Below, in pieces: positions 1-34,617 of a DNA stretch of 64,000 nucleotides. Under the pieces are notes generated by a model. The model had not been told where the DNA came from. It saw nothing but the letters and a program-made list of their open reading frames with translations, and ran no database searches. Within the stretch, counting starts at the first letter, position 1; each line of letters starts with the position of its first letter. Location: sequence record MN445185.1. The stretch is one strand, 5' to 3'. The translations under genes were made by a program, and so were the position numbers. The DNA is from Escherichia phage vB_EcoM_EC001.

Positions 1-60
1 TTGATTCATGGCCAGAAGGCATTGAGGAAAAATCGAAAACGCGAGTTGACTTCTAAGTAA
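1..60 (+). CDS. 3' end of an upstream gene (partial)
   Basis: Frame-1 reading ends at TAA 58-60 and is followed directly by a terminator hairpin. Confidence 0.3.
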   Translation: MIHGQKALRKNRKRELTSK

Positions 61-63
61 GCT

Positions 64-97
64 AGGCACTCTTCGGAGTGCCTATTATTTTTTTTCT
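64..97 (+). terminator. Rho-independent terminator
   Basis: Stem aggcactc / gagtgcct with ttcg loop, then a T-run. Confidence 0.7.
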
Positions 98-159
98 TTA
101 CGTATGCTCGCTATATTGTGACACCACTACAATTAATTAAACTTTTGGGGAAGAATAAA

Positions 160-783
160 ATGTTAAACTCAGTGGCGCTGGATGGTCCAGATTTTTCTGG
201 CAAATCAACACTCGCGAAAATGATTCAAGCGATGTTGCGCTCCGCTGGCGTTAATGTCATCATCGTCAATCACCCGACGAATACCACTGAAGCCGGTATT
301 AGTGCACGTTCTCTGGTTATCCAGCACGCTTCTAACGAACGCATTGCTAAAGCGATGTGTCTGGATTTCCAATACACGATGGATTTCGTTGTACCAGAGC
401 ACGATGTCGTTATTTTTGACCGTTTTTGTCAATCGACTATTGTCTACCAGGGCGTCGATGGTAAAGGGGAAGTTTTCCGTTCGCGGGTATTAGACCACAT
501 TAACGCACCAAAGCTTTACGTGGCAACCGATGTATCTTACGAAACCGCCACAGAACGCTTTAAGAAGCGCGTAGAGGCACAAGGTAAGAACTGGGATGAT
601 GAGGTACTGACAGCGAAGTATCTGCGCTCACAGACCGATTGGGACGCCTTACGCGACCATTACCGTTTTGCTTTCCACATCACCACAGATGGCGGCGATA
701 AGTTCCCGCTGATGCGTGTTACGGCTGACGACGATATAGCGTTACAAGCCGCGCGTATCGTTGAACGTATTCTGGCAGGTTAG
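160..783 (+). CDS. P-loop nucleotide/nucleoside kinase-like protein
   Basis: Walker A-like DGPDFSGKST near the N-terminus; ATG 160 has a GGGGA SD; track ORF begins at GTG 118. Confidence 0.6.
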   Translation: MLNSVALDGPDFSGKSTLAKMIQAMLRSAGVNVIIVNHPTNTTEAGISARSLVIQHASNERIAKAMCLDFQYTMDFVVPEHDVVIFDRFCQSTIVYQGVDGKGEVFRSRVLDHINAPKLYVATDVSYETATERFKKRVEAQGKNWDDEVLTAKYLRSQTDWDALRDHYRFAFHITTDGGDKFPLMRVTADDDIALQAARIVERILAG

Positions 784-788
784 TTGTA

Positions 789-827
789 CCCCTCTTACCT
801 TCGGGTAAGAGGGTATTGTCTTTTTTT
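789..827 (+). terminator. Rho-independent terminator
   Basis: Stem cccctcttacc / ggtaagaggg with ttcg loop, then a T-run. Confidence 0.75.
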
Positions 828-871
828 ACAGATCAGAACAGTCTTATGCTTTTTGCTTCCACTCCACTAAA

Positions 872-902
872 TTTCAGATATATATTACTTAGGTGAGAGT
901 TA
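872..902 (+). promoter_or_regulatory. Conserved 31-bp promoter-like motif, class 1
   Basis: tttcagatatatattacttaggtgagagtta is identical at 20662-20692; both copies sit after a terminator and about 45 bp before a start codon. Confidence 0.4.
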
Positions 903-947
903 CTACTAAACTCTCTAATCGACTATTAATCTAAAAGGAGTATTCTA

Positions 948-1313
948 ATGCGTTTTAAACATCAAACCGTTGTGTTGGCAAAGAAAGCGTTTTTGGTTCG
1001 TCTTTCTTACATTATTACTCGTGTCACTGCGAAGGACGTTACGCAGAAAGACATTGCGTTATTAGTAGGCTGCTCACCGTCACAAATATCTGCGATTAAA
1101 AATGAACGTGAGAAGGCCGTGACTATCGAAACATTGATGCGGGTTGCTGATACACTGCGCCTGAATTACGAAATCGTCTACCGTTCCATCAACGGCAAAT
1201 GCCGCCATAGCTTTAAAATTGAATCATGCATCGATTACATGAACAACTGTCCTATCCGGGTACGAGAAACAGGACTTAAAGTCATGGCACGTAAACCTTC
1301 TGCAGTAATGTAG
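948..1313 (+). CDS. Putative HTH (XRE/Cro-like) transcriptional regulator
   Basis: Helix-turn-helix-like segment QKDIALLVGCSPSQISAIKNE; AAGGAG SD. Confidence 0.6.
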   Translation: MRFKHQTVVLAKKAFLVRLSYIITRVTAKDVTQKDIALLVGCSPSQISAIKNEREKAVTIETLMRVADTLRLNYEIVYRSINGKCRHSFKIESCIDYMNNCPIRVRETGLKVMARKPSAVM

Positions 1314-1324
1314 GGAGCAAACGT

Positions 1325-1711
1325 ATGAATTGGTTTGTAAATGGTATCACCCGTCGCGTGATGACGGAAGAGGATGATCGATGTAAACATCTTAAAGTGG
1401 GCTCTATAGCCCCGCGCTATACGGCAGAGTGCGACCCATGGGGCCGCGAAACGTATTACATGTGCGAAGACTGCTGGGAAAAACTGCAGGCTGCAATTGC
1501 GGCGGAAGAAGTGGTCTGCGACGACTGCAAAGGTACCTTCCCGAAACGGGATACCGTTGAGTGGAAATGGTACGACTTTGACCCCAGTCAAGGGGATAAA
1601 GAACTCTGTATCTGTAATAACTGTGTGTCGTTACCGGTACATTTAAACCGTGTAGAGAATGACCGTCGGGCATTTGAACACGACTTTCCAGAAGCAACTT
1701 TCTGGGATTAA
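1325..1711 (+). CDS. Cys-rich zinc-ribbon-like hypothetical protein
   Basis: Paired CxxC motifs (CEDC, CDDC, CICNNC); GGGAG SD. Confidence 0.6.
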   Translation: MNWFVNGITRRVMTEEDDRCKHLKVGSIAPRYTAECDPWGRETYYMCEDCWEKLQAAIAAEEVVCDDCKGTFPKRDTVEWKWYDFDPSQGDKELCICNNCVSLPVHLNRVENDRRAFEHDFPEATFWD

Positions 1712-2243
1712 CTAGTGTAAACCTTAAGGAGTATATCATGGCGAAGGCCCCTAAAACTGTAGCAAAAGATTCAACGGCAAGCACCGCGACTAAATCTGCA
1801 AAAACGTCTACTACAGAATTTCCACGTTCACCTACCATTCCTAAACCGGATGTAATTGTACCAATCAGTGAACGTCTGAAAACGATTCACATCGAACGTG
1901 AATTTCCGATTGACCTTGGTCAGGAAATCGTTGCGGTTAATCTTGGTAGTGATGTCCGCTTTACTATCTACAAGGGATTAACTAGTGTAAACCTTAAGGA
2001 GTATATCATGGCGAAGGCCCCTAAAACTGTAGCAAAAGATTCAACGGCAAGCACCGCGACTAAATCTGCAAAAACGTCTACTACAGAATTTCCACGTTCA
2101 CCTACCATTCCTAAACCGGATGTAATTGTACCAATCAGTGAACGTCTGAAAACGATTCACATCGAACGTGAATTTCCGATTGACCTTGGTCAGGAAATCG
2201 TTGCGGTTAATCTTGGTAGTGATGTCCGCTTTACTATCTACAA
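1704..2243. repeat. Perfect tandem direct repeat, 2 x 270 bp
   Basis: 1704-1973 is identical base for base to 1974-2243, including the RBS, ATG and first 79 codons of the gene. Confidence 0.95.
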
Positions 2244-2664
2244 AGGCGCGCATCTGAACAACATGGTGCTAACCCGCGGTGATGAAGTTATCGGTCTGTC
2301 TCGTTACGACACGCAAATCGAAAACATCTATCCGGTGTTTGCAGTAGCGATGTTGCGTTTGTTCATGCAGGATAAAGCCGACCTTTGTGGTCAGCTTGCG
2401 GGTATGGCGGATCGTGTTGGTCATATTCTGCCGACGCTGGTGAAACTGTACCCAGTTACGATTGACGTGGCGTTTACTACTGTAGACAACAACCACGGTT
2501 ATATCGTGCTGACCAAAGACGGTAAAGTTATCGCTGGCAATCTGACTGATAACGAAGTGCAGAAACATATGGACAAATTTGCGTTCATGGTGAATCGCTT
2601 AGCGCACGTCAGTGTCAAACATTCCGAAACTTGGACGGCGCTTGCCTCCAAACCGGAACTGTAA
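1738..2664 (+). CDS. Hypothetical protein with duplicated N-terminal module (alternative start 2008)
   Basis: ORF reads through both repeat copies in frame; identical RBS and ATG at 1738 and 2008. Confidence 0.6.
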   Translation: MAKAPKTVAKDSTASTATKSAKTSTTEFPRSPTIPKPDVIVPISERLKTIHIEREFPIDLGQEIVAVNLGSDVRFTIYKGLTSVNLKEYIMAKAPKTVAKDSTASTATKSAKTSTTEFPRSPTIPKPDVIVPISERLKTIHIEREFPIDLGQEIVAVNLGSDVRFTIYKGAHLNNMVLTRGDEVIGLSRYDTQIENIYPVFAVAMLRLFMQDKADLCGQLAGMADRVGHILPTLVKLYPVTIDVAFTTVDNNHGYIVLTKDGKVIAGNLTDNEVQKHMDKFAFMVNRLAHVSVKHSETWTALASKPEL

Positions 2665-2667
2665 TCA

Positions 2668-2705
2668 TTAAGGGGTCTTCGGACCCCTTAATTTTTTGTC
2701 TTTTT
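2668..2705 (+). terminator. Rho-independent terminator
   Basis: Stem ttaaggggtc / gaccccttaa with ttcg loop, then a T-run. Confidence 0.75.
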
Positions 2706-2753
2706 ACGCATTATCCTCATGTTGTGACAGCAATACCTTTTGAGGGCATTACA

Positions 2754-3752
2754 ATGAAAACTGTGGCTAAATTGTTTCGCACCAGCATCCGCACTGCCGA
2801 GTTCCGAAATAACGTCGGTACCGATACTGTACGAGCACGCCGCCTAAAAGAGTTTCTAAAGGACGAGACTTATTCTGTTTACGTGGTGAAGAATAAAGAA
2901 ACCTGGGAGGGTTATTTAGTGGCCACCTATCGACACGGTGACCCTACACTAACCTGTCACTATTTTGAGGAGTTTGTACCTGGGGCGTTCGATAAAGTTG
3001 GTTTGGCCCTTGTGCTCGACCATACCGGATTCGAATATATGTCGTGCCCAGCACCTACTGACGATGTTGAACAAAAACTGGTCGAAAAAGGGTTTGTTCT
3101 TTCAGATATCGTTTGGGCATGTCATTCCAAACTGTTTGACAAAGTAATAACCGCACCGGAAATCAAGATTATTTCTGGTGATGCATACGCAGAACTTACC
3201 AAGGATGATAAAGACGTTATCCTGAATTTGATTAGCGGTGCAATTTGCGAAGAGCTAGAATACGATATGCGTGGCTACTATACGCACATTGGTCCGTTAG
3301 CAGAAACAGTAATAGCAAGAATTCAGCACGCTAATGTGGAGACTGCAATTTGGCGAGACGGTCATGATATCGTCGGTATTGCCCAGATGCGCTTGGTTAC
3401 ACCAGGCGTCGTTGAACTTTCTGGTTTAACCGTTGCACCCACGCACCGTAAACGTGGCATTGGTCGCCGGCTAATGGGCGCGCTATTCGATTTCGCACAA
3501 CGTCATTCCGACCAAGTCTATATTGAAACAGCTGCTGATAATAATCCAGCAAATCACCTGTATGGCAACATCTTACGTTGCAAGCAGGTACTGCGTACAC
3601 TAACGTTGAAACGCGATCCTGAACTTATTAGCTGGAAACGGGTGAATGGAAACCGCGCCGATCGTGTGCTGAAAGAAGAACCTAGCTTTCCGGTGGAGAC
3701 TACAACCAGGCTGACTATTAGTGATATGTTTCAATCTGGCATGAGAGGATGA
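2754..3752 (+). CDS. GNAT-family N-acetyltransferase domain protein
   Basis: C-terminal acetyl-CoA motif HRKRGIGRRLMG; GAGGG SD before ATG 2754; the track 5' extension from 2631 runs through the terminator. Confidence 0.7.
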   Translation: MKTVAKLFRTSIRTAEFRNNVGTDTVRARRLKEFLKDETYSVYVVKNKETWEGYLVATYRHGDPTLTCHYFEEFVPGAFDKVGLALVLDHTGFEYMSCPAPTDDVEQKLVEKGFVLSDIVWACHSKLFDKVITAPEIKIISGDAYAELTKDDKDVILNLISGAICEELEYDMRGYYTHIGPLAETVIARIQHANVETAIWRDGHDIVGIAQMRLVTPGVVELSGLTVAPTHRKRGIGRRLMGALFDFAQRHSDQVYIETAADNNPANHLYGNILRCKQVLRTLTLKRDPELISWKRVNGNRADRVLKEEPSFPVETTTRLTISDMFQSGMRG

Positions 3753-3758
3753 TAACGG

Positions 3759-4577
3759 GTGATAAGACCAATTTTAAAATGGATGGGTGGTAAGAGTCGT
3801 GTACTGCCCGAGCTGCTACAGGTGTTTCCGGATGCTGAGTATTTCGTTGAACCTTTTGTGGGCGCAGGGTCAGTGTTTTTAAACACTAAATACCCGAACT
3901 ATATTCTCGGCGACACGAACCCGGACTTAATCGAGTTACTGACCATGGCGCGCGATCGTCCGGAAGCGCTGATTCTGGAAGCAAAGGCGCTCTTTGCAAA
4001 TGGGACGGACCGCGGTCTGTACATGAAACGGCGTGAGGAATTTAACAGCGAGACAACCACGGGGAAACCTAATCTCCAGCGCGCCGCGATGTTCCTGTAT
4101 CTTACACGTCATGGTTACAATGGTTTGTGCAGATACAATCAGTCGGGTGGGTTTAACGTGCCCTATGGTCAACACCCGAACGGTGTCTATTTCCCTGAAG
4201 AGGAAATTCTGGCGTGGGCAAAACGTTGTTCGGAAACCAACGTCGAGCTGCTCTGCGCGGACTTCCGCGATATCCTAAATAAATGCCCATCTAACGCTGT
4301 GATATACGCTGACCCGCCCTATATCCCTCTTTCGGATACGGCTAAACACGCGCAGTATCACAGCAAAGAATTTTCACAAGCTGACCACCGCGAGTTAGCG
4401 AAACTTTTAAAACAACAAGCTGCCGATGGCAATAAGGTCGTTCTGTCAAACGCAGATACGTTACTCACACGCGATATTTATTACGGCTTTACTTGGCGCG
4501 AAGTTCAGGTAGGTCGATATATGTCTGCGGATGCGAATAAGCGTAAAGCGGTGACGGAGCTAATCGGCACCTTATAA
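3759..4577 (+). CDS. dam: DNA N6-adenine methyltransferase (Dam-like, D12 class)
   Basis: KWMGGK N-terminus, motif I FVGAGSVF and motif IV DPPY; GTG start. Confidence 0.85.
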   Translation: MIRPILKWMGGKSRVLPELLQVFPDAEYFVEPFVGAGSVFLNTKYPNYILGDTNPDLIELLTMARDRPEALILEAKALFANGTDRGLYMKRREEFNSETTTGKPNLQRAAMFLYLTRHGYNGLCRYNQSGGFNVPYGQHPNGVYFPEEEILAWAKRCSETNVELLCADFRDILNKCPSNAVIYADPPYIPLSDTAKHAQYHSKEFSQADHRELAKLLKQQAADGNKVVLSNADTLLTRDIYYGFTWREVQVGRYMSADANKRKAVTELIGTL

Positions 4578-4586
4578 GGTACCAAC

Positions 4587-5390
4587 ATGCAACTATTTAA
4601 TCTATACGGTATGGACAAAAATGACCTGACCGTAGAGTTTAGTGGTCGATTGACCACCTTGGGGCAACTCCGTGAACGGATTCAAGATTTGCGACCCGTC
4701 GCAGACCAAGAAGACGATCATTGGTTAGTGTTGAGCAATAGCGGTCGTGCGCAAATGTATTTTCGTGGATGTCGTTCAGGTATTGTTTACTACATCTACG
4801 AGTTGCACGTGCTTTCCGAGCCCCTGTTCCACGAGTGGAAGCGTTTAACGCGACTCCTGGAAGTGCAGATGCTCGATATTACCTGCTTTCCGCATGACAC
4901 TGAGCACGCAGCACTATACCAGCGCCTGGGGTTCGAAGCTGTAACGAAGCGTGTGGAGATTACTGTCAGTCCGAAATACGGCTTTACGTCAGACCCATCA
5001 GTTGTCCCGTTGGAGACATTGTCATTAGAACAAACCCAGGATGTTTGCTATCTGATGCGACCTACGCTAAAAGACGCAGGAACGCGTGAGATGTTGGGTG
5101 AATTAGCAAATGGTTTTGTCTCTGCGTTCGTGGGGTTGCACGGCCAGAAACCGTTTTCATTAATGCTTTATAAGGAATTCCCGAAGTGCATCATTACTGA
5201 GCAATTCTGCTGCCAAACTTTTGACCCGGTTGCTTACTCGGTAGAGTTTCTAAAACACTACCACGCTATTTTGCATTTGGCGGGACAGAAAGGTAAGAAG
5301 GTCAACATGGGTGTTGCGATAGAGCACGAGTTTCCTTCTATCGAAGGGTTAGAGTATCGTGTAATCACGCACCACTACACCCTTGCGTAA
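4587..5390 (+). CDS. Hypothetical protein
   Basis: Long ORF, tight spacing, AAGG SD. Confidence 0.6.
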   Translation: MQLFNLYGMDKNDLTVEFSGRLTTLGQLRERIQDLRPVADQEDDHWLVLSNSGRAQMYFRGCRSGIVYYIYELHVLSEPLFHEWKRLTRLLEVQMLDITCFPHDTEHAALYQRLGFEAVTKRVEITVSPKYGFTSDPSVVPLETLSLEQTQDVCYLMRPTLKDAGTREMLGELANGFVSAFVGLHGQKPFSLMLYKEFPKCIITEQFCCQTFDPVAYSVEFLKHYHAILHLAGQKGKKVNMGVAIEHEFPSIEGLEYRVITHHYTLA

Positions 5391-5399
5391 GGAGAGAAT

Positions 5400-6212
5400 A
5401 TGCTGAGAGTTATCGAACGCACGGAGAGGATTCTGGACCGAACGTGGTTGGAAGACCGTAAGGCGTTATCGTTGTTAAATGATATCGATCCTTCCACGTT
5501 ACAAGATGAACGTCGTCTTTACTACCGAATCTTTGAAGTGTTCAGTCGGGACACGGTTGAGCCTGACGCGATCGTGCTCTGTCTGGACCACGGATACATG
5601 TTAGAAGTTATCAATATGGTTCGTGCTTTAGACGCCCAGTTAACCTCGCTTGCGGATTCCTTACTTCGTGCAGCTGGGCGTAACTACGCGATGCATTTTA
5701 CTCGTTCTGAAGGGGACGAATATGCACGCATGGGCTTTTGTTGCGAAACGATAAACTACCGCAAAATTAATACATTGGTGCCTAGCCACGATGAGGATTT
5801 CTGTGGGGATGTCAGTTCGTTGTTCGATAGTAAGAAAGCGTTCTTGGATTGGGTTAGAATGCTTTACGGTAAAAGCTCTATCTACTCAACGCTCGTTACG
5901 GGCGGGAGGCTGATGTCGTGGCGAAACGCTGATAGCTACAAGTTGACAGTGCTTTCGCACCGTGGGCATCGCTGGGTTATCGGTGGATGGTTTACCGCAG
6001 AAGGGGTGGTTACTCTAAGCCGAGAGGAGTTCGGGCTGTTGATGCACTGTATCCAGTCTGAATTACCAGTGGGGGATGAACTGATTTACACCTACCACCA
6101 ATATACTGGGGGGCCTGCCGCAATGTGGTTATTAGAAAACGGTTGGCTACCCGAAAGTTATGTCTACGGACGTGCCCTGAAAACTACTAATGGAGAAAAT
6201 AATGCAAATTAA
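5400..6212 (+). CDS. Hypothetical protein
   Basis: Long ORF, AAGGAGAG SD. Confidence 0.6.
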   Translation: MLRVIERTERILDRTWLEDRKALSLLNDIDPSTLQDERRLYYRIFEVFSRDTVEPDAIVLCLDHGYMLEVINMVRALDAQLTSLADSLLRAAGRNYAMHFTRSEGDEYARMGFCCETINYRKINTLVPSHDEDFCGDVSSLFDSKKAFLDWVRMLYGKSSIYSTLVTGGRLMSWRNADSYKLTVLSHRGHRWVIGGWFTAEGVVTLSREEFGLLMHCIQSELPVGDELIYTYHQYTGGPAAMWLLENGWLPESYVYGRALKTTNGENNAN

Positions 6213-6480
6213 TCGTACAGTGTCGAAGTCTAAAGAAGTCGTTTACAACGTTGAAGACGGTGATGTAATGCAGTTCCGTGCCGTTATTGACGAACAGCAC
6301 GTACTCCAAGTTGTTTATTCGAAAGAAGAGATGACTCGTGCACATAGTCGCGTGTTGGAAAAACTCGTCGCGAAAGCCAAACAGCGCGACGGTATTAAAT
6401 CCTACAACGTCATGTACGGTTATCAGTTACGTGAGGTGGAAGGGGAGCTGTTAATCACCCCTGTTCCGGTAACGGCATAA
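6202..6480 (+). CDS. Hypothetical protein
   Basis: ATG 6202 with GGAG SD; track start 6190 is upstream in frame. Confidence 0.55.
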   Translation: MQINRTVSKSKEVVYNVEDGDVMQFRAVIDEQHVLQVVYSKEEMTRAHSRVLEKLVAKAKQRDGIKSYNVMYGYQLREVEGELLITPVPVTA

Positions 6481-6520
6481 TTCGCCATTGTATGACCCTT
6501 AAATACCGTTGAGGTTAACT

Positions 6521-7003
6521 ATGGATATGATCGAATTAGGTCAGCTCCCTCAGCACGATTTTGATTTAGGCGTGCGTCATGAGGAAGGGGCCGACGCGAA
6601 CACACTAATGGCCCGCTACTACGAGCTACTGACCGGTCAACCGTTGGACGATGAACACATCAACCGTTTTGAAAAACTGTTGGCACAACTCATCACCTCT
6701 AACGCAGAACGCATTGGCATGTTAAACGAAATGAACTTTGCTGATGTGGAGCCGTCTGACGCTCAGAAGATTCTTATCGATGGTCCTGTACCAAGCGATG
6801 AGGTACAAGACCTTCTGGCAGGTATCCGTGCAGGCTTCGATGAAGCTGCTGAGAAATACGCGGAAGAGCTGGCAGATGTCGATTTGGCTGCGCCGGTTGA
6901 CCCGAATCCGTCTGCAGAGGAGACTGCAGCTGCGAAATTGAAACTCGCACGCTTTATCTGTGCTGCTGTCCTGACAGACGACCGCGAAGAAAACCAACTG
7001 TAA
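6521..7003 (+). CDS. Hypothetical acidic protein
   Basis: ATG 6521 with GAGG SD; track used TTG 6509. Confidence 0.6.
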   Translation: MDMIELGQLPQHDFDLGVRHEEGADANTLMARYYELLTGQPLDDEHINRFEKLLAQLITSNAERIGMLNEMNFADVEPSDAQKILIDGPVPSDEVQDLLAGIRAGFDEAAEKYAEELADVDLAAPVDPNPSAEETAAAKLKLARFICAAVLTDDREENQL

Positions 7004-7008
7004 GGTCT

Positions 7009-7044
7009 ACCTCCTTGCCCATGGGTAAGGAGGTCCCTTTTTAT
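7009..7044 (+). terminator. Rho-independent terminator
   Basis: Stem acctccttgccc / ggtaaggaggt, then a T-run. Confidence 0.6.
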
Positions 7045-7099
7045 TTACATCAGTCCACTAACTTATGTGAAACAACCCACGTAATGAGGAATTAAGAGA

Positions 7100-7417
7100 A
7101 TGTGGTTAAGTGCTATTCATCGTGACCTGCCAAAACGTGAAGTGACTCTTTCTGTCGATGCGGAACCGATTACCGTTGGTGTCGCAAACTTCGACCGTAT
7201 GGAAGAAGGACAGTATGTCGTGGTGGACAACGATGAAAACGAATTCATGTTATTCCATCCCGAAGTTGATGCGTCTGAAATCCGCGAGGGTTCTATCTTG
7301 TTTTCTTGGCAAGACAAAGAAACTAAACAGTGGATGTGGTGCGTTGCTAACACAACCAATGAAAAAGGTACCGCGTATGCCCCAGGACAGCTTCATGTCG
7401 AACCTAAACCCCATTGA
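7100..7417 (+). CDS. Hypothetical protein
   Basis: GAGGA SD; protein-like composition. Confidence 0.55.
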   Translation: MWLSAIHRDLPKREVTLSVDAEPITVGVANFDRMEEGQYVVVDNDENEFMLFHPEVDASEIREGSILFSWQDKETKQWMWCVANTTNEKGTAYAPGQLHVEPKPH

Positions 7418-7709
7418 GCCCACGCTGACGCACCAGGAACTGCACGTCCGTTTTATTCGGGCGTTCACACCCCCGTTAGGTGGTGAGGTACACGATCGTT
7501 CCGTGGTTGCAGAAGTTAAAGGTATCGGCGAAGAACTAATGACACTGTCTAATATTGTGACGGGTGTTGAGTTCACGTTACCGTTAAACGTATTTCGGTT
7601 TATTCCGCGCGTAAACGAAACGCTGCTCATCGACCGTGTACATCATCGGATTATGGCGCAGGTACATCCTAGCCGTAAAGAGTATGTGCGCTTAGAGATG
7701 ATGGTCTAA
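7377..7709 (+). CDS. Hypothetical protein
   Basis: Protein-like C-terminal part of track ORF 7158-7709; start chosen at an internal ATG overlapping the end of the previous gene. Confidence 0.5.
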   Translation: MPQDSFMSNLNPIEPTLTHQELHVRFIRAFTPPLGGEVHDRSVVAEVKGIGEELMTLSNIVTGVEFTLPLNVFRFIPRVNETLLIDRVHHRIMAQVHPSRKEYVRLEMMV

Positions 7710-7717
7710 CGCACGAC

Positions 7718-7747
7718 TTTTCAGATAGATGTTATTTTACTGAACCT
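7718..7747 (+). promoter_or_regulatory. Conserved promoter-like motif, class 2
   Basis: tttcagatagatgttat then 5 nt then tgaacct, repeated at 16118-16146; extended -10-like TGnTATTTT. Confidence 0.4.
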
Positions 7748-7771
7748 AACTGTAAAGAAAGGAAAAAGTAG

Positions 7772-8077
7772 ATGGCTAAACAATACATAATTGTTAAACG
7801 CGCAGGTACGACTCTGCTGTACGTGGAGAAAGGTTGTGAGAACACTGCAACCGCCAAGAAACTGAATCTGCAAGGGTTTCTGTATCAAGGTCTCCGCGCG
7901 GGTTTGACCATCACTTTTAAAGGCTTACCACAGGCGAAGAATCTGCGCGTCGTACGTGCAGACGGTGTAGAGCGTGCCTTGGTAGCCGACACCCCGGTTG
8001 ATACTATCCCTGCCAGTAAGAAGGCAGCGAAAGCAACCAAGAAAGTCGACGATAAACGCAAACGCGTTGTCGCTTAA
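7772..8077 (+). CDS. Hypothetical protein with basic Lys-rich tail
   Basis: AAGGAAAAAG SD; ORF ends at a terminator. Confidence 0.6.
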   Translation: MAKQYIIVKRAGTTLLYVEKGCENTATAKKLNLQGFLYQGLRAGLTITFKGLPQAKNLRVVRADGVERALVADTPVDTIPASKKAAKATKKVDDKRKRVVA

Positions 8078-8083
8078 GTAGTC

Positions 8084-8124
8084 CCCTACCTAACTTCGGT
8101 TAGGTAGGGTTCTTTTTATTTTTA
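8084..8124 (+). terminator. Rho-independent terminator
   Basis: Stem ccctacctaac / gttaggtaggg with ttcg loop, then a T-run. Confidence 0.75.
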
Positions 8125-20604: not shown

Positions 20605-20641
20605 ACCCTACTCCTTCGGGAGTAGGGTTTCTTCTTTTTTG
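20605..20641 (+). terminator. Rho-independent terminator
   Basis: Stem accctactcc / ggagtagggt with ttcg loop, then a T-run. Confidence 0.75.
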
Positions 20642-20661: not shown

Positions 20662-20692
20662 TTTCAGATATATATTACTTAGGTGAGAGTTA
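20662..20692 (+). promoter_or_regulatory. Conserved 31-bp promoter-like motif, class 1
   Basis: Identical to 872-902. Confidence 0.4.
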
Positions 20693-34538: not shown

Positions 34539-34586
34539 CAGGAGACTTCATGGGGTTGTATAGCGCACTTTACCATAACAGCTAAA

Positions 34587-34617
34587 AATAGGCCCTTCGG
34601 GGCCTATTTTCTTTTTT
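34587..34617 (+). terminator. Rho-independent terminator
   Basis: Stem aataggccc / gggcctatt with ttcg loop, then a T-run. Confidence 0.75.

Follow-up and report, generated by a model that had tools for sequence, protein, structure and literature searches.

The 64,000-nt window analyzed here shares 95-97% nucleotide identity with SPN3US and other Seoulvirus genomes, and on this similarity its source is an SPN3US-like jumbo phage (Seoulvirus). Two open reading frames on the + strand, 2754-3752 and 3759-4577, lie 6 nt apart, exactly where a first-pass annotation of this DNA had placed an acetyltransferase gene followed by an adenine methyltransferase gene; their annotated orthologues are SPN3US_0104 ('GCN5-related N-acetyltransferase') and SPN3US_0105 ('DNA adenine methylase'). 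Because the region is so closely similar to SPN3US and its relatives, and the same two coding sequences are annotated there, the two-gene pattern is not due to chance. The gene pair is already in the public annotation of SPN3US and about 40 related genomes, and gp104 and gp105 each belong to a well-known enzyme class, so the finding as such matters little. We found no functional study of gp104 or gp105 in SPN3US in the literature searched, and the name 'gp104' is absent from the main text of five SPN3US papers on head structure and virion mass spectrometry. The locus is organized as follows:

2667..2692, + strand: intrinsic-terminator-like hairpin with an 11-bp stem, a TTCG loop, and a T-run, closing the upstream gp101-gp103 unit
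2693..2753, + strand: intergenic leader with conserved CTTTTTACG and TTGTGACAGCAATAC (2722-2736) and a GAGGG Shine-Dalgarno sequence; candidate promoter of the unit
2754..3752, + strand: gp104 orthologue, predicted 332-aa tandem-GNAT acetyltransferase; ATG start preceded by GAGGG
2754..3125, + strand: degenerate N-terminal GNAT domain of gp104 (aa 1-124), lacking the Q/RxxGxG/A acetyl-CoA loop
3162..3611, + strand: C-terminal catalytic-type GNAT domain of gp104 (aa 137-286; PF00583)
3447-3464, + strand: acetyl-CoA loop RKRGIG of gp104 (aa 232-237)
3612..3752, + strand: C-terminal tail of gp104 (aa 287-332), poorly conserved (28% mean identity)
3759..4577, + strand: gp105 orthologue, putative 272-aa EcoDam-type orphan N6-adenine methylase; GTG start
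3855-3869, + strand: FVGAG of gp105 (aa 33-37)
4311-4322, + strand: DPPY of gp105 (aa 185-188)
4587..5390, + strand: gp106 orthologue, 267 aa, in the gp104-gp109 unit; phrog_9941, no Pfam match
5400..6212, + strand: gp107 orthologue, 270 aa, same unit; phrog_13677, no Pfam match
6190 or 6202 to 6480, + strand: gp108 orthologue, same unit; no family matches
6509 or 6521 to 7003, + strand: gp109 orthologue, last cistron of the unit; no family matches
7009..7034, + strand: terminator-like hairpin closing the gp104-gp109 unit

The two hairpins, at 2667-2692 and 7009-7034, are + strand terminators with no other between them, so gp104 and gp105 are co-transcribed; they open a six-gene operon-like unit (2754-7003), bounded by hairpin terminators, with a cistron spacing of 6-9 nt. 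The same hairpin, followed by a T-run, precedes the gp104 homologue in every genus aligned, and the layout of the leader is also conserved across genera. The sole other copy of the exact 13-specified-base leader motif is at 116-130, ahead of the gene for thymidylate kinase, and we predict that the leader acts as the promoter of the gp104-gp109 unit.

The gp104 orthologue has 99% amino acid identity to SPN3US gp104 and matches phrog_8663 over its full length. The C-terminal GNAT motif noted in the first-pass annotation is confirmed by Pfam Acetyltransf_1 (PF00583), which matches aa 194-270 (E 2.1e-14; 54.2 bits, cut-off 20.7). The large N-terminal domain, there described as unknown, is instead a second, degenerate GNAT fold; the HMM comparison suggested for it gave no Pfam match, and its GNAT topology comes from an AF2 model and from fold matches. 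An alignment of 24 sequences gave a model with a pLDDT of 84.7 (49.7 with an earlier 6-sequence alignment); MarR-GNAT fusions and MshD-like proteins found by an exhaustive search were left out of the alignment as generic two-domain GNATs that are not family members. The model has two complete GNAT topologies, with the N-domain ordered b1-a1-a2-b2-b3-b4-a3-b5-a4-b6 at pLDDT >90, and the top full-length fold matches are all tandem GNATs. As modelled, then, gp104 has the tandem-GNAT architecture of MshD and VipF, with the cofactor motif in only one of its two domains. The C-domain has both hallmarks of the superfamily, the fold and a Q/RxxGxG/A loop after strand b4, and the last glycine of the RKRGIG loop (G237) is nearly invariant across the 24 family members. 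Mean identity is 45% in the N-domain versus 42.5% in the catalytic domain, and the tail, which is missing from the Derbicusvirus homologues, is predicted to be disordered from about aa 296 (pLDDT <50 from aa 298). The formerly 'unknown' half of gp104 is a pseudo-GNAT domain and defines a jumbo-phage tandem-GNAT family that is very narrowly distributed: in a set of 1.8 billion representative proteins, no more than 8 clusters fall below E 1e-30.

Several more specific assignments for gp104 were considered and set aside. Spermidine N-acetyltransferase has only marginal SpeG/SSAT PDB profile matches (E about 0.1) in its favor; the SPN3US protein that tested negative for spermidine acetylation is the 154-aa gp95, not gp104 (PMC9992855). 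With a score of 24.3 against the equivalog cut-off of 163.1 bits for MshD (TIGR03448), gp104 is not a mycothiol synthase, and a Mom-type DNA adenine acyltransferase is not indicated, the Pfam and PHROG matches being to generic acetyltransferase models or an unannotated family. Sequence searches (Pfam, PHROG, NCBIfam, PADLOC) and fold searches gave no link of gp104 to DNA, restriction, or defense.

Paralogy of gp104 with gp106 and gp107 was not found by BLASTP, and none of the candidate paralogues of gp104 has a Pfam GNAT match at E values up to 10. Profile comparison with hhalign gave weak though in-register signals among the three, at probabilities of at most 16%: E 0.06 for gp106 against the gp104 N-domain, and E 0.007 and 0.0016 for gp107 against gp104 and gp106, respectively. 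Comparisons with the Derbicusvirus proteins GNAT2 and X gave E 0.011-0.16. The length and organism of the gp106 fold matches in BFVD fit gp106 homologues, and we hypothesize, with this indirect support from BFVD, that gp104, gp106, and gp107 are paralogues. Kwan gp127, a confirmed BFVD fold match, has no sequence homologue in the window.

The identification of the second gene as a D12-class adenine methyltransferase with a DPPY motif holds (Pfam MethyltransfD12, PF02086, E 3.6e-54, 184.6 bits against a cut-off of 22), and the NCBIfam 'dam' model TIGR00571 matches at 258.5 bits (cut-off 114.85). The motif order is that of the alpha class, with FxGxG N-terminal and DPPY C-terminal, both conserved in orthologues. 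A phmmer comparison with E. coli Dam (2g1p) gave an E value of 3.7e-58 and 41% identity, and six of the seven EcoDam residues with GATC-contact roles (K9, Y119, N120, L122, R124, P134, and Y138; PMC4417163) are identical in gp105, the exception being Y138, which is replaced by histidine. Residues K9, W10, Y119, N120, L122, R124, N126, P134, DPPY, and R249 are kept in all 10 phage orthologues examined. Together with R137Q, which gp105 also carries relative to EcoDam, Y138H could make the enzyme less strict at the first base pair. A GAGAGGA just ahead of it and the conserved K-W residues support the GTG start at 3759; as these residues are encoded only if translation begins at this GTG, the SPN3US Dam start is probably annotated 8 codons too short, at the cost of a DNA-contact lysine (K9).

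The Dam annotation of gp105 is well supported, and its sequence is that of a catalytically competent enzyme with GATC specificity, the latter inferred from the conserved contact residues. It scores 246.6 bits against the 441 bits required by the chromosomal-Dam equivalog NF008152, and by this measure gp105 is a Dam family member, not the housekeeping orthologue. The best PADLOC model is 'orphan methyltransferase', and no nuclease family match was found in gp104, gp106, gp107, gp108, or gp109 with Pfam, NCBIfam, or PADLOC, so we rejected a type II restriction-modification system with a hidden restriction enzyme beside Dam. The features of gp105 are those of an orthodox orphan methylase of GATC type, which makes an anti-restriction role a reasonable and plausible proposal.

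GATC is the most depleted tetranucleotide across the clade. Its observed/expected ratio (O/E) in the window is 0.39 (z -10.5), the lowest of all 256 tetramers, compared with 0.29 over roughly 60 kb of Huxley; in CR5 (Derbicusvirus), which lacks Dam, it is 0.17. Ratios from 8- to 13-kb loci (0.19-0.48) are too noisy to use, and with only three longer samples we discarded a clean dose relation between Dam presence and GATC O/E; in these three samples it is suggestive that Dam-positive lineages tolerate about twice the GATC sites of the Dam-less genus (0.29-0.39 versus 0.17).

The GNAT-then-Dam order is found in five lineages (Seoulvirus, Machinavirus, Wellingtonvirus, and two metagenomic lineages), and it stays while the flanks vary, with gp102/gp103 upstream and gp106/gp107 downstream coming and going. 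In Derbicusvirus, the syntenic site carries TMK, GNAT1, GNAT2, and a 295-aa protein; the homology of GNAT1 to gp104 extends across the two domains (99.2% probability in hhalign, E 3e-19). No Dam is encoded in the complete 223,989-bp CR5 genome (best tblastn E = 1.0); because Derbicusvirus thus keeps the acetyltransferase without the methylase, GNAT and Dam are probably not an obligate pair.

We favor, as the probable though not assured reading, that gp104 and gp105 are two independent enzymes whose genes are expressed together at the head of a six-gene operon-like unit in an SPN3US-like jumbo phage. The solitary, E. coli-Dam-type gp105 would use AdoMet to methylate N6 of the GATC adenine on phage DNA. 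SPN3US codes for a chimallin homologue, and a square lattice is seen in lysates of infected cells (PMC9365700); SPN3US is very probably a nucleus-forming phage. Host Dam is probably kept out of this nucleus, in which case the phage enzyme would maintain methylation at the few GATC sites that are left, and methylation and genome-wide GATC avoidance would both limit attack by nucleases that target unmethylated GATC (MboI/DpnII-type restriction enzymes and MutH, for example). Against such a role, a genome short of 60-80% of its GATC sites needs a GATC methylase less, and CR5 manages without one. For gp104, whose fold and cofactor motif are established, we propose that the degenerate N-terminal domain is probably the acceptor-binding half and that the C-domain, which keeps the acetyl-CoA loop, probably serves during infection to acetylate an amine of some protein or small molecule. 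The Dam gene would lie within a variable slot downstream of the conserved GNAT gene, with the GNAT having no need of Dam and Derbicusvirus filling the slot with a second GNAT paralogue. No methylation data for any phage of this clade were found in the literature searched. The Dam-positive genera and the Dam-negative Derbicusvirus provide a natural experiment, with a common genome architecture and differing GATC avoidance; this opens two questions to direct test, namely whether genomes inside a phage nucleus escape methylation by host Dam, and what makes enterobacterial phages avoid GATC.

The first-pass annotation had both enzymes right and suggested that the GNAT and Dam could be partners in host takeover or anti-defense; co-transcription and adjacency in five lineages speak for a pair, and Derbicusvirus speaks against an obligate one. 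A functional pair, such as an anti-defense or DNA-modification module, could have gp104 acetylating a host defense or restriction protein, or Dam itself, or acylating DNA in a Mom-like manner alongside GATC methylation. Co-transcription with a 6-nt spacer and a gene order kept despite changing flanks are consistent with this, and such persistence is more than pure independence predicts. In phage Mu, expression of mom depends on Dam, and Mom is itself a GNAT-superfamily adenine-N6 acyltransferase (see below). However, the genomes are collinear overall, so that adjacency and conserved order say little; the matches of gp104 are to ordinary acetyl-CoA GNAT models and to tandem GNATs with small-molecule or protein substrates, and it has no Mom-type, DNA-binding, or defense-related match; and Derbicusvirus has a gp104 homologue without any Dam. 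Functional partnership is therefore weakly supported at best, and we regard it as unlikely.

We give a similarly low chance to Dam being mainly a regulator or a packaging or replication signal, rather than an anti-restriction enzyme, comparable to cleavage at the phage P1 pac site, where Dam has a role, or to Dam-controlled promoters. The residual GATC sites in the window are clustered (22 pairs at most 60 bp apart versus 12 +/- 3 expected), 26 of the 117 are in the context CGATCG, and strong avoidance elsewhere would make retained sites informative. Nevertheless, no association of the clusters with the terminator and promoter elements of this region was found, and because CR5 lacks Dam, no essential process conserved in the clade can depend on it.

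More speculatively still, Dam could be an element of a conserved module in probably nucleus-forming jumbo phages, lying within an array of tandem-GNAT-fold paralogues (gp104, gp106, and gp107; GNAT1, GNAT2, and X in Derbicusvirus) and methylating GATC inside the phage nucleus, where host Dam cannot do so, with the GNAT-fold proteins acting jointly on DNA- or defense-associated targets. We doubt this, although if true it would link genome compartmentalization, lost host epigenetic marking, and target-site avoidance. It is very improbable that the phage captured its Dam gene recently, as a host-type gene that does little or nothing for it, or that the enzyme acts on host DNA instead of phage DNA. 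In favor of this are the nearest relatives outside the jumbo-phage clade, which are Enterobacterales Dam-family proteins (44-49% identity), and a host that is already Dam-positive. Against it, gp105 resembles its neighbors in GC and GC3, and the gene is intact, with catalytic and DNA-contact residues kept save for Y138H, across lineages only 54-67% identical in this protein, which points to long-term purifying selection.

Each enzyme was also compared with known systems. The tandem GNATs MshD (PDB 1OZP/2C27), ORF14 (2WPW), MAB_4324 (7Q3A), and a glucosamine N-acetyltransferase (5KF1) are 12-17% identical to gp104; the likeness to MshD is in architecture only, and unlike MshD and the other tandem GNATs, gp104 has an N-domain without any acetyl-CoA loop. 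The best Foldseek match is the Legionella effector VipF (PDB 6WQB/7WX5; E 7.6e-14, 12-16% identity), a tandem GNAT that is delivered by a pathogen and targets a eukaryotic host factor, whereas nothing suggests that gp104 is injected. Mom and Rac are single-domain proteins, and gp104 has no specific sequence similarity to either in Pfam or PHROG scans. Both are phage enzymes of the GNAT superfamily, Mu Mom being an adenine-N6 acyltransferase and phiKMV Rac acetylating the host RNA polymerase alpha subunit (PMC7824862). The Derbicusvirus proteins GNAT1 and GNAT2 (CR5_099/CR5_100), by contrast, are true gp104 homologues over both domains and share its genomic position, although GNAT1, at 285 aa, lacks the C-terminal tail and is followed by its paralogue GNAT2 instead of Dam.

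Like EcoDam, gp105 is solitary and has no partner nuclease, but it is phage-encoded, and its own target site is strongly depleted in the genome that carries it. T4 Dam (PDB 1YFJ/1Q0S), classically regarded as protection against restriction, is likewise a phage-encoded orphan methylase for adenine in GATC and falls in the same Pfam family; it is, however, far more distant from gp105 than EcoDam is (E 4.5e-11 versus 3.7e-58), and the SPN3US-type Dam falls on the EcoDam/DpnM branch and not on that of T4.

The GNAT gene gp104 and the Dam gene gp105 most likely encode two independent enzymes from one operon: an orphan GATC methylase complementing strong GATC avoidance, and a tandem-GNAT acetyltransferase with a putative protein or small-molecule target. 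Both enzyme annotations made in the first pass, and their coordinates, are correct, yet the locus is an ordinary, previously annotated one. gp104 (2754-3752, +) codes for 332 aa, has GAGGG 8 nt 5′ of its ATG, and matches Pfam Acetyltransf_1 at aa 194-270 (E 2.1e-14), the C-terminal GNAT motif noted earlier; a longer TTG-start ORF from 2631 was rejected as the gene because the reading would pass through a terminator hairpin. gp105 (3759-4577, +; 272 aa) is matched by MethyltransfD12 along its entire length (E 3.6e-54), as expected of a D12-class adenine methyltransferase, with FVGAG at aa 33-37 and the reported DPPY at aa 185-188, and it scores above the cut-off for NCBIfam 'dam'.

Window bases 1-8000 match 41 phage records, 22 of them at 80% query coverage or more, with 95-97% nucleotide identity among the matches listed; the matching genomes are all Seoulvirus jumbo phages of ~240 kb (SPN3US, SEGD1, JN03, Proteus phage 7, and Escherichia phage Lh1B). 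In SPN3US the first ORF is listed as SPN3US_0104, a 'putative GCN5-related N-acetyltransferase', and the second as SPN3US_0105, a 'putative DNA adenine methylase', so the pair is already publicly annotated. SPN3US encodes a diverged chimallin homologue, gp244, and lysates of SPN3US-infected cells show a square lattice whose dimensions match those of the phage nucleus (PMC9365700); this nuclear-shell context probably applies to the window phage. Several SPFM records (LR535901-LR535917) match the region only as short pieces (up to 40, ~31% of the query, 98.7-99.4% identity) and give aberrant 'proteins' in searches; they are probably error-rich assemblies.

Terminator-like hairpins, mostly with TTCG loops, regularly punctuate the gene clusters of the window, and a few, being perfect palindromes, might work on either strand; the first five listed are strong, with stems of 9-11 bp and a T-run after them:

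63-84, +, terminator-like hairpin
790-813, +, terminator-like hairpin
2667-2692, +, terminator-like hairpin
7009-7034, +, terminator-like hairpin
8084-8109, +, terminator-like hairpin
20605-20628, 34585-34610, and 41621-41644, more of the same kind

There are no strong + strand hairpins between 2693 and 7008, and we therefore treat gp104, gp105, and the next four genes, gp106, gp107, gp108, and gp109 (2754-7003), as one unit; only 6-9 nt separate each of the first four cistrons from the next, and gp107 and gp108 overlap. The 2667-2692 hairpin is followed 3′ by CTTTTTACG and then TTGTGACAGCAATAC (2722-2736), which recurs exactly only at 116-130, upstream of the thymidylate kinase gene; the element 5′ of that gene and of gp104 reads TTGTGACA.CA.TAC. 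In all aligned genera, the order hairpin, T-run, TTTTTAC, TGTGA is found upstream of the gp104 homologue. The predicted co-transcription of GNAT and Dam is well supported, because they share one unit between hairpins with a conserved upstream layout. A second class of element, CAGATATATATTAC (875-888 and 20665-20678), which resembles the phiKZ early promoter, occurs as TTTCAGATATATATTAC before gp101 and before another gene at about 20.7 kb. Both kinds of element follow terminators and may be promoters belonging to different temporal classes.

The mechanical thymidylate kinase ORF (118-783) opens at GTG 118, within the promoter-like motif; relatives have their annotated start at ATG 160 (207 aa). 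The gp103 homologue contains a perfect 270-bp tandem duplication (1704-2243, 2.0 copies, 100% identity) that copies its ribosome-binding site and first ~80 codons, giving an ORF of 308 aa (1738-2664) versus 218 aa in SPN3US; the Lh1B CDS is likewise annotated at 927 nt, and the duplication is either a very recent event or an assembly artefact.

The large N-terminal part of gp104 was described as an unknown domain, but its first 124 residues form a complete GNAT topology in the predicted model, with a second at aa 137-286 and a tail predicted to be disordered from ~aa 296. A shallow alignment gave an unusable prediction (pLDDT 49.7), and the model used is from a 24-sequence alignment covering all lineages (pLDDT 84.7; aa 1-295 mostly >90). 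Its top Foldseek ranks are VipF, ORF14, MAB_4324, a tandem glucosamine N-acetyltransferase, and MshD (E 1e-13 to 5e-11), and gp104 scores far below the equivalog cut-offs of the MshD, RimI, Eis, and aminoglycoside models. gp104 belongs to a very narrow family: when 1.84 billion representatives were searched exhaustively with a profile, just eight clusters had E <1e-30, each of them from this phage clade, besides a few distant two-domain relatives. The acetyl-CoA loop (R232-K-R-G-I-G237) is in the C-domain only, and is absent from the N-domain. Because N-domain conservation at least equals that of the catalytic domain (mean identity 45% versus 42.5%), a putative acceptor-binding role fits. A published assay of spermidine acetylation by a SPN3US GNAT, which was negative, used gp95 (154 aa) rather than gp104 (PMC9992855).

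Separate single-domain GNATs of ~155 aa are encoded a few genes upstream in SPN3US and three other lineages, directly after a phiKZ internal-head-protein-like gene, so that this early region encodes a minimum of two or three GNATs in the clade:

70-534 of locus L001, SPN3US gp95
1970-2437 of L013, single-domain GNAT
3156-3632 of L014, single-domain GNAT
1109-1570 of L023, single-domain GNAT

gp106 and gp107 have no match in Pfam, and their sequence comparisons by hhalign give weak matches, in register on a common '...GF' motif that ends the N-terminal domain. When the gp104 model was compared by Foldseek with predicted structures of viral proteins (BFVD), the matches were orthologues and uncharacterised 252-278-aa proteins of the same clade (E 1e-13 to 2e-6; target-normalised TM-scores 0.36-0.62). 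One, a 276-aa Kwan protein, has the length of the gp106 homologue Kwan gp133, and another, of 278 aa, that of the Phobos 'X' protein; accession mapping covers Kwan gp127 only, with other assignments made by length and organism. On this basis, the proteins listed next are candidates for highly diverged gp104 paralogues with the tandem-GNAT fold, and it is plausible that Dam lies inside an array of them:

4587-6212 of the window, gp106 and gp107
19971-21712 of L016 (CR5), holding the 295-aa Derbicusvirus protein X

The first-pass annotation also proposed that GNAT and Dam may act as a pair, and the adjacency itself holds up: GNAT directly precedes Dam in five lineages, namely Seoulvirus, Machinavirus (ChrisDB, Huxley, Caitlin, and pEa_SNUABM_4), Wellingtonvirus (Kwan and pEa_SNUABM_11), and two metagenomic lineages, L011/L013 (lacking gp107) and L023 (lacking gp106 and gp107). 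Collinearity extends across the entire region in these genomes, however, which makes conserved adjacency weak evidence for a functional link. In Derbicusvirus (CR5, EarlPhillipIV, and Phobos) the site holds thymidylate kinase, GNAT1 (285 aa), GNAT2 (285 aa), and the 295-aa protein; GNAT1 is homologous to gp104 across both domains (hhalign 99.2%, E 3e-19), and GNAT1 and GNAT2 are paralogues (BLASTP 1e-8). A tblastn search of the complete CR5 genome with the window Dam found no match (best E = 1.0), and the CR5 annotation lists no methylase. GNAT is thus maintained where Dam is missing, and Dam fills a variable slot 3′ of a conserved GNAT gene. We consider a functional partnership unlikely and favour two independent enzymes.

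In the window, GATC falls further below expectation than any other of the 256 tetranucleotides (117 sites observed versus 298 expected on the basis of trinucleotide composition; O/E 0.39, z -10.5), and the most over-represented are its one-substitution neighbours GATG, GATA, CATC, and TATC. A well-established view explains counter-selection of GATC in enterobacterial phages by MutH and restriction, which attack it when unmethylated. GATC ranks as the most depleted tetranucleotide across the clade as well, with O/E 0.19-0.48 in every related locus and 0.29 in ~60 kb of Huxley. Avoidance is most extreme in Dam-less CR5 (160 versus 964 genome-wide, O/E 0.17, z -26; all 64-kb windows 0.11-0.19, the syntenic 64 kb 0.16), and it is therefore clade-wide and either predates or is independent of Dam. 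Across three samples, GATC sites are retained about twice as often in the two with Dam (the window and Huxley) as in CR5, which fits relaxed counter-selection. The sites that remain in the window cluster (22 pairs no more than 60 bp apart versus 12 ± 3 expected) and are biased to CGATCG (26/117). CTAG is also low (O/E 0.65 in the window, 0.38 in CR5), and seven 6-bp palindromes with 3-8 copies expected (AGTACT, CCCGGG, GAGCTC, GCATGC, GGATCC, GGCGCC, and GGGCCC) are absent from the whole window, suggesting broader restriction-site avoidance.

For gp105, the top PADLOC model is 'orphan methyltransferase', and no nuclease family is found among its neighbours. Its relatives within the jumbo-phage clade have 50-99% identity; the closest outside are Enterobacterales Dam-family proteins (44-49%). 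Crystallography and mutagenesis assign seven residues of E. coli Dam (EcoDam) to GATC recognition: K9 and Y138 contact the first base pair, L122 and P134 the third, and R124 the fourth, while Y119 intercalates and N120 makes a base contact (PMC4417163). K9, W10, Y/F119, N120, L/M122, R124, N126, P134, DPPY, and R249 are kept in gp105 and nine orthologues from five lineages; the Y138 position is H in most. K9 and W10 are encoded only with the GTG start at 3759, which has GAGAGGA upstream; the ATG at 3783 lacks a Shine-Dalgarno sequence. Every orthologue has the N-terminus M-x-x-x-(I/F)-(L/I)-K-W-(M/V)-G-G-K, and the long form is annotated in Lh1B, SPAsTU, and pEa_SNUABM_29. The SPN3US annotation (795 nt, from the internal ATG) omits window 3759-3782 (SPN3US record 96851-96874), and its start is probably mis-annotated, eight codons short, leaving out the conserved K-W that contacts DNA in EcoDam. 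In a phmmer search of the PDB, EcoDam ranks first (2g1p, E 3.7e-58; 41% identity to gp105), followed by DpnM (4e-40), and T4 Dam (4.5e-11) is much more distant from gp105 than either.
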